A DNA stretch of 64,000 nucleotides, from contig JAAYKK010000055.1 in assembly GCA_012522435.1 (NCBI GenBank), positions 2,327 through 66,326 of the forward strand, in the 5' to 3' direction. Source of the stretch: Clostridiaceae bacterium. GTDB taxonomy: Bacteria > Bacillota > Clostridia > Saccharofermentanales > DTU023. Positions 20,946 through 24,273 of the stretch are shown here, in pieces. The notes under the pieces were generated by a model, which saw only the letters and a list, made by a program, of their open reading frames with translations, was not told the origin of the DNA and ran no database searches. Position 1 is the stretch's first letter. The number at the start of each line of letters is the position of its first letter. The position numbers and the translations under genes are program-made.

Positions 20946-21887
20946 ATGAAGAAAAAAAGCAAATTAATTAAGGCAGGTTTAGTGGGCTATCCTTTGGGAT
21001 ATTCTATTTCTCCAATGATCCATGAGTTTTTATTTGAGCAGGCGGGAAGAGATGGAGAATACCGGGCAATAAAAATTCAGCCTGATAATTTCATAGAAAG
21101 AATCCCCAATATATTACGAGAATATCCATATCTGAATGTAACAATTCCTTACAAAAAAGAGATTGTTGCTCATTTGCAAGGAACTTCTGACAGTGCAAGA
21201 ATTTTAGGCGTTGTAAATACTGTAGTAAATGAGTTGGGCTATAACACTGATGGTATCGGTATGGAATTAGCATTAGCCGACTGGGATAAACCGGAACAGG
21301 CTTTGATTATTGGTTCAGGCAATACTTCACGTACCGCTCTTTATACATTTATTGAAATGGCTGTACCAAATATATATATGATCCATCGCAATGCTCTAAG
21401 TTTACAAAAATTAAAAAATGATTTGATTCAATCAATAAATATCGAGATTGAATCTACGGGGAGTTTTAAGTTTCCGGACTCTGAACAAAAAATAACATTT
21501 TTTGTTGATCAAGAAGATGTTTTTGAATCTGAAGTACAATTTGATTTATTGATCAACACGACATCAGGTGGCATGTACCCTGAAATTGATCAATTACCCA
21601 TAAAACCTGAGATACTCAATCATCTTTTAAGTGAATCCAAGCCAAAAGTTTTTGATGTGATTTATAATCCGCTCCGTACCAGATTACTCTCTTTGGCTGA
21701 GCAAAATAATTTGGAATACCAAAATGGGTTGGCCATGCTCTTCTATCAGGCATATGCTTCTCATGCCATATGGTTTTCTGAAGATTGTTCACCTACCAAA
21801 GCGAAGCAATTGTGGCATGATTTTCAAAACAAATTTGATCCGGAAAAGTTGATCACTGAACTCCAGCTACAAGAAAAAAATGATTAA
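20946..21887 (+). CDS. aroE: Shikimate dehydrogenase
   Basis: GYPLGYSISPMIHEF substrate motif, NVTIPYK, and Rossmann motif IIGSGNTSR. I moved the start to the ATG at 20946 behind a GGAGG SD; the track start is 20886. Confidence 0.85.
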   Translation: MKKKSKLIKAGLVGYPLGYSISPMIHEFLFEQAGRDGEYRAIKIQPDNFIERIPNILREYPYLNVTIPYKKEIVAHLQGTSDSARILGVVNTVVNELGYNTDGIGMELALADWDKPEQALIIGSGNTSRTALYTFIEMAVPNIYMIHRNALSLQKLKNDLIQSINIEIESTGSFKFPDSEQKITFFVDQEDVFESEVQFDLLINTTSGGMYPEIDQLPIKPEILNHLLSESKPKVFDVIYNPLRTRLLSLAEQNNLEYQNGLAMLFYQAYASHAIWFSEDCSPTKAKQLWHDFQNKFDPEKLITELQLQEKND

Positions 21888-22699
21888 GTTTTTTTCTTGG
21901 GCCGAAATAGCCTGATGGCTTTTTTGAAATAGTACTTTAATTCAGCCATCATGCCTATTACAAATTTTTTCAAAATGAATTTGCGAGGGAAAAATTGGGC
22001 TTTCTTTCTGGTATAGGCTCTAATTAACATAGCCACTTCCGTAGGTTGGACCTGTTTATTATAATGCATCATATAGTTTTCAGTTCCCGGAGCTGCATAA
22101 AAGAAACGATACCAAGCAGCATATGCATCACCTACTCCGAATAAGTGACCTGCTTCATGGGCGGAAATCTGACGCAGATAATGCTCATTTCCGGATTTAG
22201 TTATTACTGCAAATCCCGGAAAACTTCTACTCCAATTATAGCCAATACTTTCAATTTGACCGGTTCGAAAAATACCCCACAACCTTCTTAAGATGCCGCT
22301 AGCGACATGTGATGGCAGGATTCTCGGTTTTTTGAGAAAGATCGGAATAGGTCTTACTTTTCTTTGAAGTAATCTCAACAGATAAAGTTTCCGTGGGTGA
22401 TGCTTCCCGGATAATTCATCTTCTATTATTTCGACCACGAATGGCATTTTTTCAAAATGATTTCTACTTAATCCGGTAGTAATGTTTTCTTTTAGAAAAA
22501 ATTCTTCACAAGCTGATTTTAATTCTTCAATCATTAAATAAGTACCGGACCAATTTTGCTCGATGCCTTCACTAATGATAGACTTATAAGATTTTTCTTT
22601 AATTGATTTTTGAATTGCCTGCCGGTTAAAGACAACCTTTACAGTCAATCTGAATCCTATTTGAGGATGATAACTGAGTTTAAGGGGAGAATGGCTCAT
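21884..22699 (-). CDS. Small zinc metallopeptidase-like protein (HExxHxxGxxD, metzincin/snapalysin-type motif)
   Basis: 271 aa. HEAGHLFGVGD at 22127-22159, followed by a candidate Met-turn (ENYMMHY). Basic C-terminus. ATGA start/stop overlap with the upstream gene. Confidence 0.5.
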   Translation of the reverse strand: MSHSPLKLSYHPQIGFRLTVKVVFNRQAIQKSIKEKSYKSIISEGIEQNWSGTYLMIEELKSACEEFFLKENITTGLSRNHFEKMPFVVEIIEDELSGKHHPRKLYLLRLLQRKVRPIPIFLKKPRILPSHVASGILRRLWGIFRTGQIESIGYNWSRSFPGFAVITKSGNEHYLRQISAHEAGHLFGVGDAYAAWYRFFYAAPGTENYMMHYNKQVQPTEVAMLIRAYTRKKAQFFPRKFILKKFVIGMMAELKYYFKKAIRLFRPKKKT

Positions 22700-23505
22700 T
22701 TTAGATTTGGATTAAGTTTTTCTTTTAACCAAGTTAATAACTGGTCCAACTTAATCCTTTGAGATAATTGTAAATACCAGGGTACGAGTGATTTATCTTG
22801 AGGATAAAAGAGGTGGGCATGATTTAAATCAAGAAATATGGGGTTTAAATAAGAGGTTTGCTCCGTACTAATATAATTGACAATTCCTACTCCTGTAGAA
22901 AGCACTTCCTCTTCATTTTTCATATCGGTGATCAAGATCAGATTATTTTGACTTACAGGTTTAACATCTTTTTGTCGGAGTATAAAATTAGAAGTTTCTG
23001 ATAAAATATTATCAATGATCAAGACATTTAATAATGGGCGATAAAGTAAGAATGTTCTGTGATATTTGTTCTGAAATTTATAATTTATAAAGCTTGTTTT
23101 TTTCTCATAAATAAGGCCTAAACTGTGCTTGGCAACTTGTTTATAACCGTTATGGGTCAGCCATTCCGAGATAAGTTGAACCGGATTTCCTTCTTGTTTT
23201 AGCTGATTGGCAATTTTAGGATCTAGTTTATATTTTTTTTGCTGAGCTAGTATTGCCAAACTTTTAGGATCTGCGGGGTTGTAAAGCTGAACAATATGAT
23301 TAGAGATCATAGTATTAATGCTGTTGAAACATAAGATAGTATATAATAAAATGCAAGTGCCGAATAATAATCTAATCCATCCCATTTCTATGATGGATTT
23401 CAATTGATAAATATTTTTCCCAATCCAGAAAAGAGCGATTCCCAAAATCACAAGAATCAGGATCTGACTTATTATATTACGTATTTTCCAATATCTTTGT
23501 TTCAA
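22696..23505 (-). CDS. Hypothetical membrane protein (two N-terminal TM helices plus a ~190-aa soluble domain)
   Basis: 269-aa ORF translationally coupled to the peptidase gene. No recognisable motif. Confidence 0.45.
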   Translation of the reverse strand: MKQRYWKIRNIISQILILVILGIALFWIGKNIYQLKSIIEMGWIRLLFGTCILLYTILCFNSINTMISNHIVQLYNPADPKSLAILAQQKKYKLDPKIANQLKQEGNPVQLISEWLTHNGYKQVAKHSLGLIYEKKTSFINYKFQNKYHRTFLLYRPLLNVLIIDNILSETSNFILRQKDVKPVSQNNLILITDMKNEEEVLSTGVGIVNYISTEQTSYLNPIFLDLNHAHLFYPQDKSLVPWYLQLSQRIKLDQLLTWLKEKLNPNLK

Positions 23506-23629
23506 ATTAAGCCTCTCAACAATAAATATTGTAGCACTAATTGATTATAAGCAAAAATAATGCTTAATTAAATCTAGCTAAGATTATTGTTTTTCAAAGT
23601 TATTTGTTAAGGTGGGAAAAGTATGAAGA

Positions 23630-23902
23630 TTAATCAATCAAATAATCAGAATCTTTTTCACTCGCTGCCAACAGCTCAATTTTTTGATCTGAATTAAGTT
23701 CAAAGTCACTACCGATCAATTGATCTAAACTAATTTCAAAAAACACACTTATTTTTCTCAGCATAGGAATACTAGGGAATCGTCTGCCTGTTTCATAAAG
23801 TGAAATTGTACTGCGCGCTATTCCGAGTTTTGTGGCTAGTTGTGATTGAGTTAGTTTTTTATCTTTGCGTAATTGTTTGATGTTTCTTGCAAATTTTGAC
23901 AT
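23630..23902 (-). CDS. XRE-family helix-turn-helix transcriptional regulator
   Basis: HTH_3 pattern (LTQSQLATKLGIARSTISLYETGRRFPS). Start placed at the ATG at 23902 behind a GAGGTG SD. Confidence 0.85.
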   Translation of the reverse strand: MSKFARNIKQLRKDKKLTQSQLATKLGIARSTISLYETGRRFPSIPMLRKISVFFEISLDQLIGSDFELNSDQKIELLAASEKDSDYLID

Positions 23903-23910
23903 ACACACCT

Positions 23911-24061
23911 CATATATTAATTAGGCAAATAATATTGAACAAAATGTTCCTAATAGCTACATTTGTATTCTAGCATACATTTAATTTAATTTCCTAATAT
24001 TTGCAATAAAAGTAAGAAAAGAATATTTAATTATGCTACAATGAGTAACATATATTAATTA
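23911..24061. promoter_or_regulatory. Divergent promoter/operator region between the two XRE genes
   Basis: 13-nt direct repeat CATATATTAATTA at 23911-23923 and 24049-24061. Perfect inverted repeat GAACA-AAA-TGTTC at 23937-23949. Extended -10 TGcTACAAT at 24034-24042. Confidence 0.5.
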
Positions 24062-24084
24062 ATCTATTGTAAATGGAGAGTAAT

Positions 24085-24273
24085 ATGCGAAGTTGGTTAA
24101 AAGAACTCAGGCGTTCATTATCATATACACAGGATCAGGTCGCCGATAAATCAGGTATTTCGCGGGCCTATTATACACAAATTGAACTAAATAACAGGAC
24201 ACCGTCTCCAAAGGTTGCAATGGAGATCGGCAAAGTGCTCGAGTTTGATTGGACCCGCTTTTACGAAGAGTAA
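24085..24273 (+). CDS. Small XRE-family (Cro-like) HTH regulator
   Basis: 62 aa. YTQDQVADKSGISRAYYTQIELNNRTPS. Start at the ATG at 24085 behind a GGAGAG SD. Confidence 0.8.
   Translation: MRSWLKELRRSLSYTQDQVADKSGISRAYYTQIELNNRTPSPKVAMEIGKVLEFDWTRFYEE

Follow-up and report, generated by a model that had tools for sequence, protein, structure and literature searches.

Several known bacterial circuits join an XRE-family repressor to a zinc peptidase, among them ImmR/ImmA of ICEBs1, DdrO/IrrE, and CapH/CapP. A locus of an uncultured clostridium carries a small zinc peptidase gene close to two XRE genes, together with a gene for a membrane protein, and raises the question of what these proteins do and whether they form one system. 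The locus lies in a 64,000-nucleotide (nt) stretch of contig JAAYKK010000055.1 from a Clostridiaceae bacterium (GenBank assembly GCA_012522435.1, positions 2,327 to 66,326), here called the window. A preliminary description of the window had proposed an uncharacterized three-gene cassette, consisting of an XRE regulator, a two-helix transmembrane (TM) protein, and the peptidase (PEP), wedged between aroE and the ctsR operon and resembling known toxin-antitoxin (TA) and defense contexts. We present here a computational analysis of this locus and its relatives. The conserved core is the TM protein and the peptidase, which are translationally coupled, and not all three genes. With a probability of roughly 0.5, we read this core as a protease that is tethered to the membrane, regulated, and connected with protein quality control, and that in the window's clade is placed at a pair of XRE genes.

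The genes concerned are as follows.

21884-22699, minus strand: peptidase gene (PEP), 271 aa, from the six-frame open reading frame (ORF) list and the raw sequence
22696-23505, minus strand: TM protein gene, 269 aa, TTG start, from the ORF list
23630-23902, minus strand: XRE regulator gene, 90 aa, an HTH_3 domain with a variable acidic tail
24073-24273, plus strand: small XRE gene, frame open from 24073 (66 aa), probable ATG start at 24085 (62 aa)
20886-21887, plus strand: aroE, its tail overlapping the peptidase gene by 4 nt
from 24418: ctsR-mcsA-mcsB-clpC

The stop codon of the TM gene and the ATG of the peptidase gene share 4 nt (ATGA). This overlap was among the items of the preliminary description that were recovered unchanged from the ORF list and the sequence, as were its genes, their coordinates, and the peptidase motifs HEAGHLFGVGD and ENYMMHY. 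Its divergent small XRE gene is also present, but the start given at 24073 was corrected to the ATG at 24085, from which homologues start at M-R-x-W-L and which agrees with the 62-aa product of independent gene calls on an identical Joint Genome Institute (JGI) contig. Pfam labels on the JGI contig agree for the surrounding genes (CtsR, McsA [UVR], McsB, aroE, Cytidylate_kin2, and Hpt). The GC content of the cassette is 0.30 to 0.32, slightly lower than that of its surroundings (0.35 to 0.37).

Three features of the peptidase are as follows.

22127-22159, minus strand: zinc motif HEAGHLFGVGD, residues 181 to 191 (H181, E182, H185, G188, D191)
22061-22081, minus strand: ENYMMHY, residues 207 to 213, with the candidate Met-turn M211
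21905-21973, minus strand: C-terminal cationic amphipathic helix, residues 243 to 265, beyond the catalytic domain in the AlphaFold2 model

Homologues of the peptidase numbered 33 in a database search and 112 clusters in a profile search. The source names shown were all "hypothetical protein," nearly all of the homologues lacked a Pfam domain, and the named records were all Clostridia or Bacillota metagenome-assembled genomes (MAGs). Because E values in the profile search fell sharply at the edge of the family, from 1e-38 to 1e-8, the family is discrete. Conservation was assessed in an alignment of 84 diverse members, down to 28% identity with the window peptidase. Residues H181, E182, H185, G188, D191, Y193, and M211 are invariant in this alignment, as are W50, S134, R138, W141, G142, W156, G162, A180, G184, A192, A195, Y197, R198, E221, A228, and F237. 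The zinc-motif residues are invariant in a 34-sequence alignment too, in which M210 is nearly so. The preliminary description had singled out HExxH conservation as a deciding check; since the key residues are invariant across members this diverse, HEAGHLFGVGD is, to judge from the alignments, a real motif and not a chance match. M211 stands 20 residues after the Asp ligand D191, and the AlphaFold2 model has a short helix or turn at residues 210 to 213; its loop at 195 to 198 is of low confidence.

Proteins with HExxHxxGxxH and a Met-turn are classed as Met-zincins and those with HExxHxxGxxD as Asp-zincins, and snapalysin retains a Met about 10 residues past its third ligand (PMC3890501). From the Asp ligand and the invariant Met 20 residues on, we place the peptidase as what appears to be a new, previously undescribed Asp-type family of the metzincin clan, with a predicted His-His-Asp zinc site. 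No curated family claimed it above threshold in Pfam, NCBIfam, PHROGs, or PADLOC. The suggestion of an uncharacterized Asp-type metzincin with a candidate Met-turn was borne out, and no well-characterized housekeeping family took its place. In Pfam, only Reprolysin and Met-zincin models matched the window peptidase, below threshold and on the motif (Reprolysin_2, _4, and _5 at E = 0.08 to 0.2 and 12 to 13 bits, against cut-offs of 22 to 27); NCBIfam, PHROGs, and PADLOC gave no match. Peptidase_M7 (PF02031) did not match the window protein and matched 3 of the 84 members below threshold (best E = 8e-4). Peptidase_M78 (PF06114) likewise did not match it and matched 2 of the 84 weakly (best E = 0.001), in line with the earlier remark that the protein does not look ImmA-like. 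Across the 84 members, all Pfam matches were below threshold: Matrixin in 9, Met-zincin (DUF4953) in 5, Peptidase_M7 in 3, M78 in 2, Reprolysin_5 in 2, and M6 in 1. The literature search returned general zincin papers and no description of this family.

When the family profile was compared with PDB sequences, snapalysin (1c7k/1kuh), the small neutral protease of Streptomyces (MEROPS M7), came first, with E = 0.005 over 33 residues. The alignment covers the motif, AAHEaGHLfGlgDAY in the family against TAHETGHVLGLPDHY in snapalysin, the snapalysin motif itself being HETGHVLGLPD. Shared features are HExxHxxGxxD with Asp as the third ligand, a Tyr two residues past that Asp (DHY in snapalysin, DAY in the window peptidase), and a Met conserved farther along the chain. 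The likeness is limited to those approximately 33 motif residues, and the PF02031 threshold is not reached. Snapalysin is secreted, with a signal or propeptide and a mature enzyme of about 130 aa, whereas the window peptidase has no signal peptide, is twice as long at 271 aa, and has a membrane partner; its Met follows the Asp by about 20 residues, compared with about 10 in snapalysin.

The fold was predicted with AlphaFold2 from the family alignment (mean predicted local distance difference test [pLDDT] score, 88; predicted template modeling [pTM] score, 0.85). The order of strands and helices fits a complete metzincin catalytic domain, which has a mixed sheet, a backing helix, an active-site helix, and a C-terminal helix; one extra C-terminal helix, residues 243 to 265, follows. 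A Foldseek search of the model against the PDB, proposed in the preliminary description, returned a metzincin fold, with adamalysin/ADAM domains as the best matches (best E = 3.6e-4, probability 0.99): the leading entries were ADAM17/TACE, ADAM10, ADAMTS4, and snake venom metalloproteinases, and ranks 1 to 40 were all ADAM, ADAMTS, or snake venom metalloproteinase entries. Against viral structures, there was a single weak match, to a phage zinc protease (E = 5e-3). Adamalysins (M12B) thus share with the peptidase a size of about 250 aa and metzincin topology. They differ in having His as the third ligand where the peptidase has Asp; Pfam Reprolysin stays far below threshold, and the window peptidase has no disulfides, prodomain, or cysteine switch and is predicted to be cytoplasmic. 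It would therefore stand nearest to snapalysin in the style of its active site and nearest to adamalysins in overall fold. With its catalytic residues intact, it is predicted to be an active zinc endopeptidase.

Hydropathy and charge also agreed with the earlier account, which had noted a basic C terminus and the lack of a signal peptide. No segment of the peptidase exceeds 0.84 in a 19-residue Kyte-Doolittle window (KD19), and there is no hydrophobic N terminus or signal peptide. The protein has a net charge of +26, a basic C terminus, and a single Cys; across the family, net charge has a median of +17 and exceeds +8 in 89% of members. The peptidase is predicted to be cytoplasmic. Helix 243-265 has a hydrophobic moment of 0.45 to 0.57 and a net charge of +3 to +8 and may be a membrane- or partner-binding element.

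The second member of the core is the 269-aa protein, for which hydropathy confirmed the two N-terminal TM helices noted in the preliminary description.

23317-23475, minus strand: region of two TM helices with a short loop, containing the only 19-residue Kyte-Doolittle windows above 1.6

The hydrophobic segments span residues ~11 to 29 and ~43 to 63, separated by a loop of about 13 residues; they form an N-terminal hairpin ahead of a basic ~200-aa domain. The first 10 residues contain four K/R and no acidic residue. By the positive-inside rule, this N terminus suggests that both termini are cytoplasmic (N-in/C-in), which would put the ~200-aa domain in the cytoplasm. A word-indexed search found 13 close (near-clade) homologues, and 40 representatives at 50% identity, alignable over their full length, came from an exhaustive profile search. 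In this wide alignment, L86 and R150 are the sole invariant residues, and P77, S82, N187, S203, N210, L220, P235, and D237 are nearly invariant. The family motifs are R[FY]DPGDPxSL just past the second TM helix, LNVLIVD, SAAAGVVNFL, and GRLFYPxDxS. No catalytic signature is apparent in this pattern. A PD-(D/E)xK nuclease was considered from an alpha-beta-beta-beta-alpha-beta order and from E134, K135, and D194 in the near clade, and it was dropped because these three residues are not kept in the wide family. An AlphaFold2 model from the 13-sequence alignment has helices at 2 to 37 and 41 to 70. No significant match was found in Pfam (33 members scanned), NCBIfam, PHROGs, or PADLOC, nor against PDB sequences with the near and wide profiles; Foldseek of the model returned only noise (best E = 0.08).

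To survey how the two families pair, the peptidase alignment was run against a single genome of each GTDB species, which gave 49 loci, 45 of them usable (designated here by L numbers). Hidden Markov models (HMMs) of both families and of XRE proteins, together with the proteins that flank the cassette in the window, were mapped on all loci, with a reach of ±7 kb per match. The loci are labeled Saccharofermentanales, Mageeibacillus, Fastidiosipila, Saccharofermentans, and Oscillospiraceae or, more loosely, Clostridia, Clostridiaceae, Clostridiales, Ruminococcaceae, Eubacteriales, and Bacillota MAGs; one weak locus (L061) is labeled "uncultured bacterium." In the arguments from gene neighborhood that follow, related loci are not independent observations.

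In 16 of the 45 loci, the gene immediately upstream of the peptidase gene is the TM gene; in 2 more, the TM gene lies about 6 kb upstream. In 16/16 adjacent pairs, the gap from TM stop to peptidase start is -41 to +18 nt, and clustering of neighbors showed the TM gene to be the commonest peptidase neighbor, followed by PfkB and ThrRS (8 loci each). The dedicated membrane partner suggested earlier is thus upheld. Two sets of database homologues also carry consecutive locus tags (GX217_06645/06650 and GXZ43_06290/06295). On a neighbor-joining tree, paired peptidases fall on three deep branches, and one large branch holds solitary peptidases only. The pair occurs as a unit in at least four different contexts, five of the pairs being distant from that of the window (L042, L048, L051, L054, and L057). 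A physical complex of the TM protein and the peptidase is suggested by this gene context. The pair has been passed on vertically, as a module, inside a single order of uncultured anaerobic Clostridia.

The XRE genes are distributed differently. They are found only in the window's own clade, with orthologues at the same position in 10 of 11 near-clade species, and they are not nearby in any of the five distant pairs. In locus L015, a close relative whose peptidase is 56% identical, another gene takes the place upstream of the TM gene and XRE genes are lacking; TM-PEP-aroE, followed by the gene for a Cytidylate_kin2-domain protein (CK2), is kept. Of the points that the preliminary description proposed to survey, the co-occurrence of TM protein and peptidase was therefore found, but constant flanking by XRE genes was not, and the three genes do not stand as a unit.

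Within the near clade, the whole block clpC-mcsB-mcsA-ctsR / XRE / XRE-TM-PEP / CK2-hpt is syntenic in 11 species at 50 to 60% protein identity. The variable gene of the region is aroE, which separates PEP from CK2 in the window, L001/L002, and L013 to L017 and is absent from L008 to L010 and L018 to L023. The cassette had been said to interrupt housekeeping synteny; it is instead part of a syntenic block in which aroE comes and goes. The XRE pair stays with TM-PEP where ctsR has been relocated (L008/L021). In L009/L022, one XRE gene is inverted and divergent from the TM gene and still lies upstream of TM-PEP.

Both XRE proteins match Pfam HTH_3 (PF01381; cut-off, 23 bits), the 90-aa protein with 59.4 bits (E = 3.4e-16) and the small one with 48.0 bits (E = 1.3e-12). 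The 90-aa protein also approaches the NCBIfam RstR-like phage repressor model (70 bits, below the cut-off of 80), and weak matches to the XRE proteins came from the PADLOC Control_protein model and from phage repressor models. The region from the XRE genes to the TM start was aligned by eye in 11 loci, which revealed an operator, and a scripted scan was then run in each of these 11 related loci from the outer XRE gene end to just past the TM start. The regulatory features of the window are as follows.

24035-24049, no strand assigned: palindromic operator GCTACAATGAGTAAC (GYTAC-N5-GTARC), perfect at 10/10 positions
24034-24042, plus strand: extended -10 of the small XRE gene, TGCTACAAT, overlapping the operator
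23967-23975, minus strand: extended -10-like element, TGCTAGAAT, probably that of the 90-aa XRE gene
23528-23536, minus strand: extended -10 of the putative TM-PEP promoter, TGCTACAAT, about 23 nt upstream of the TTG start

Operator matches at 9 or more of 10 positions occur in the scanned stretch of 10 of the 11 loci and are, for 9 of these 10, the only ones in the whole ~15-kb locus; L023, whose intergenic region is masked, has none in the stretch. The shuffled expectation for the window region is 0.06. Relatives carry TGTTACAAT at the position of TGCTAGAAT, followed by one or two further tandem palindromes, and the second site of the window is degenerate under the GYTAC-N5-GTARC model. A 13-nt direct repeat, CATATATTAATTA, present twice in the XRE intergenic region and rarer than chance, was also considered as an operator and was rejected, as it was not found in the related intergenic sequences compared.

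The XRE pair is thus a genuine conserved regulatory unit, as the preliminary description had it, and by its operator and promoters it is probably autoregulated. Like CI/Cro and restriction-modification (R-M) controller switches, it consists of two divergent small HTH_3 genes with palindromic operators over their promoters; unlike them, it has no phage or R-M context. The further claim that the switch drives TM-PEP was not supported. An extended -10, TGnTAnAAT, is conserved 20 to 30 nt upstream of the TM start in every near-clade locus (10 related loci), which points to a separate TM-PEP promoter at 23528-23536 with half an operator only. Control of TM-PEP by the XRE pair is plausible. Two relatives have GC-rich inserts between the XRE gene and the TM promoter, in a spacer that is otherwise AT rich (L008, ~5830 to 6140; L013, ~5830 to 6130). 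They resemble small MITE- (miniature inverted-repeat transposable element) or REP-like (repetitive extragenic palindromic) repeats and lengthen the spacer from ~120 to ~350 nt; the L008 insert consists of two ~100-bp tandem copies.

A second context was found outside the window's clade. A metagenome scan with a subset alignment of distant TM-family members gave 13 loci, in 1 of which the peptidase gene is adjacent. They share a block in which a membrane protein of about 200 aa (beginning MDYLEGF; no Pfam match) is followed by a membrane-anchored HtrA-like protease (Trypsin_2 plus PDZ, E = 1e-35) and then by the TM gene. Upstream of the block are genes that we take, from N-terminal sequences, to be murB, rapZ, and whiA. 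The HtrA stop and TM start overlap in L064 and L066. The arrangements are as follows.

L048 (Fastidiosipila sp.), 3743-7765; L057, 3535-7369; L074, 1856-5690: HtrA-TM-PEP
L062 to L068: HtrA-TM, with no adjacent PEP or with the contig ending
L069 to L073: MDYLEGF-TM-GlpK

In some lineages, the TM gene therefore has a protease gene on each side, one protease being predicted outside the membrane and the other inside. A link of the module with protein quality control is suggested by this HtrA-like neighbor in other lineages and by the ctsR/clpC adjacency in the window's clade.

Further neighbors of the two families were recorded. Near the window's stress operon, in 24347-24408, a promoter-like site for ctsR itself (TTGAAA, 16 nt, TATACT, with a TG) is followed by tandem GGTCAAA/AGTCAAA heptads (AAGGTCAAAGATAGTCAAAGTCAAAG) resembling a CtsR operator; with its own promoter and these heptads, the stress operon seems to regulate itself without involving the small XRE gene that precedes it. 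In L001/L002, an insertion sequence (rve/DDE_Tnp_IS240 transposase, 2519-3577) lies between clpC and mcsB and splits the ctsR operon. At the other end of the block, the only terminator-like hairpin (21897-21925, plus strand) falls within the 3' part of the peptidase coding sequence and would act for aroE, leaving peptidase transcription convergent with aroE. The 345-aa product of the CK2 gene (19802-20839 in the window, minus strand) carries a Cytidylate_kin2 domain in its N-terminal part; its C-terminal half, about 150 aa, could not be assigned confidently to any family (weak DUF790 match, E = 0.0055). Every near-clade locus has the CK2 gene just past the peptidase gene and ahead of hpt. In loci without aroE, the CK2 gene runs codirectionally with the peptidase gene at gaps of 45 to 184 nt and may therefore be in the peptidase operon.

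A protein of about 1,050 to 1,100 aa without a Pfam domain, with an AlaX-like tRNA_SAD protein after it and an Rce1-like protease before it, is conserved near the cassette in near-clade loci.

14103-18505 in the window; 12365-16775 in L001: arrangement of the ~1,050- to 1,100-aa protein

In L054, the most distant pair, ORFs of 1,107 and 400 aa (1515-6126), similar by size, lie directly upstream of TM-PEP. Four distant pairs have a heavy-metal P-type ATPase gene directly downstream or within ~3 to 4 kb.

L042, 7934-11530; L051, 7526-10990; L048, 11080-13671; L057, 10536-13217: P-type ATPase

The ATPase was identified by Pfam (HMA plus E1-E2 ATPase) in L042 and by its N-terminal CxxC sequence in the other three. 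This adjacency is of possible interest for a zinc enzyme and represents two independent lineages only. An alanine racemase gene lies upstream of the TM gene in L042, and its L051 counterpart is similar by eye. Among solitary peptidases, the start of the gene in L035 is overlapped by a shikimate kinase gene (6372-6905; PF01202, E = 4e-34), a neighbor cluster found in three species (L034, L035, and L036). Together with the tail-to-tail aroE, this makes two independent shikimate pathway adjacencies, which may be coincidence. In L006/L007, a serpin gene (8853-10109; PF00079) is adjacent and convergent to a solitary homologue.

In the mechanism that we propose, the TM protein would tether the peptidase at the inner face of the membrane and would probably gate it. 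The cationic amphipathic C-terminal helix and the basic surface of the peptidase could aid binding to acidic membrane lipids. Proteolysis would then be confined to membrane-proximal substrates, as a part of envelope or protein quality-control physiology. The back-to-back XRE repressors would probably set the expression of TM-PEP, a pair that may be harmful if overexpressed. A bolder version, which we consider unlikely, makes the two-TM protein a trans-membrane relay from an extracytoplasmic HtrA-type protease, whose gene directly precedes the TM gene in Fastidiosipila-like lineages, to the cytoplasmic Asp-metzincin. Such a relay would amount to a hitherto unrecognized form of envelope stress proteolytic signaling in Gram-positive anaerobes, rewired in the window's clade under an XRE bistable switch beside the ctsR/clpC regulon. 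By gene order alone, the module is analogous to DegS-RseA-RseP and BlaR1/BlaI, which also link a membrane protein to proteases, in that some lineages encode an HtrA-like ectoprotease, the TM protein, and a cytoplasmic metallopeptidase in succession. Unlike those pathways, the locus has no homologue of RseA, RseP, or BlaR1 and no sigma or anti-sigma factor, and the extracellular loop of the TM protein would be only about 13 residues long.

Several observations weigh against the proposed membrane-tethered quality-control protease. In over half of the species loci, no TM gene accompanies the peptidase gene within ±7 kb, and most distant TM genes have no adjacent peptidase gene; the two families can therefore be encoded separately and may also function separately. 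The TM protein model is poor (pLDDT, 60) and without a recognizable fold, and the Foldseek TM-scores of the peptidase model are low (~0.35), at an identity of ~10%. On the regulatory side, the TM-PEP promoter carries only half of the operator (TGYTAC, shared with its -10), and XRE genes are missing from L015, which retains TM-PEP. The quality-control theme is itself drawn entirely from gene neighborhoods, and these contexts could be inherited synteny.

The same regulatory observations suggest that the XRE pair and TM-PEP may be unrelated neighbors, TM-PEP being a constitutive, lineage-specific housekeeping unit and the XRE proteins regulating themselves or something else. The conserved extended -10 promoter of TM-PEP without a full palindrome, the intact TM-PEP-aroE-CK2 of L015, and the five distant pairs without XRE genes all fit this account, which we nevertheless find doubtful. 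The XRE pair lies directly upstream of TM-PEP in 10 of the 11 near-clade species, the association survives both the relocation of ctsR and the XRE inversion, and the TM-PEP -10 shares the TGYTAC half-site of the operator. As for location, the nearest characterized relatives of the peptidase (snapalysin, adamalysins, and matrix metalloproteinases) are extracellular, and the HtrA-like neighbor of other lineages acts outside the membrane, so the peptidase might be a secreted, snapalysin-like protease exported nonclassically with help from the TM protein. This is barely credible: no aligned member has an N-terminal hydrophobic signal, disulfides cannot form with the single Cys of the window peptidase, and the positive-inside rule predicts that the large domain of the membrane partner is cytoplasmic.

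A TA, abortive infection, or antiphage system, in which the XRE proteins would restrain a toxic peptidase and a membrane effector until infection, was the framing raised by the preliminary description. XRE genes paired with zinc peptidase genes are a known theme in TA and defense systems; the XRE proteins give generic helix-turn-helix (HTH), capH, and controller protein matches in PADLOC, the pair is tightly coupled and potentially toxic, and an AbiEii gene and type I R-M genes lie a few kilobases from solitary homologues. The framing was not sustained, and we regard such a system as very unlikely. The peptidase and TM protein match 0 families in PADLOC-DB 2.0, the XRE matches there being to generic HTH models only, and no relative of either protein was found among 50,697 phage and 72,556 plasmid records or in IMG/VR. 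The module keeps the same chromosomal position in 11 species, its family stays within one order, the XRE genes are missing from all distant pairs, and the neighbors are housekeeping genes (alr, rapZ-whiA, htrA, pfkB, and thrS). Its inheritance is vertical; patchy horizontal spread and mobile elements, the marks of a type II TA or mobile cassette, were not seen. Slightly less probable again is a circuit of the ImmR/ImmA, DdrO/IrrE, or CapH/CapP kind, possibly a relic of a mobile element, in which the peptidase would cleave one of the XRE repressors and so flip the switch. The locus shares with these circuits a small XRE repressor gene beside a zinc metallopeptidase gene, and the near match of the 90-aa XRE protein to the RstR model and the weak Peptidase_M78 matches in 2 of the 84 members also point that way. 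Yet the peptidase is of another family, lacking a PF06114 match and having HExxHxxGxxD plus Met rather than the ImmA type of motif, and an XRE gene is lacking near most members of the family. In the 90-aa XRE protein, the C-terminal tail is unconserved, and the L010 protein (65 aa) lacks it, so there is no conserved cleavable domain as expected of an ImmR-like repressor, and no integrase or other mobile gene flanks the cassette.

The membrane-tethered protease that we favor would represent a new family of the metzincin clan that is strongly basic, Asp liganded, and predicted to be cytoplasmic, with a dedicated membrane partner. To our knowledge, cytoplasmic metzincins are rare. The HtrA-like/TM/metzincin gene order and the adjacency to ctsR/clpC hint at a proteolytic link across the membrane. 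The finding bears on no long-standing open question. The family is restricted to one poorly cultured clostridial order of digesters, rumen, and gut, and its immediate impact therefore lies in annotation, in protease classification, and in a hypothesis on envelope and protein quality control in these organisms.

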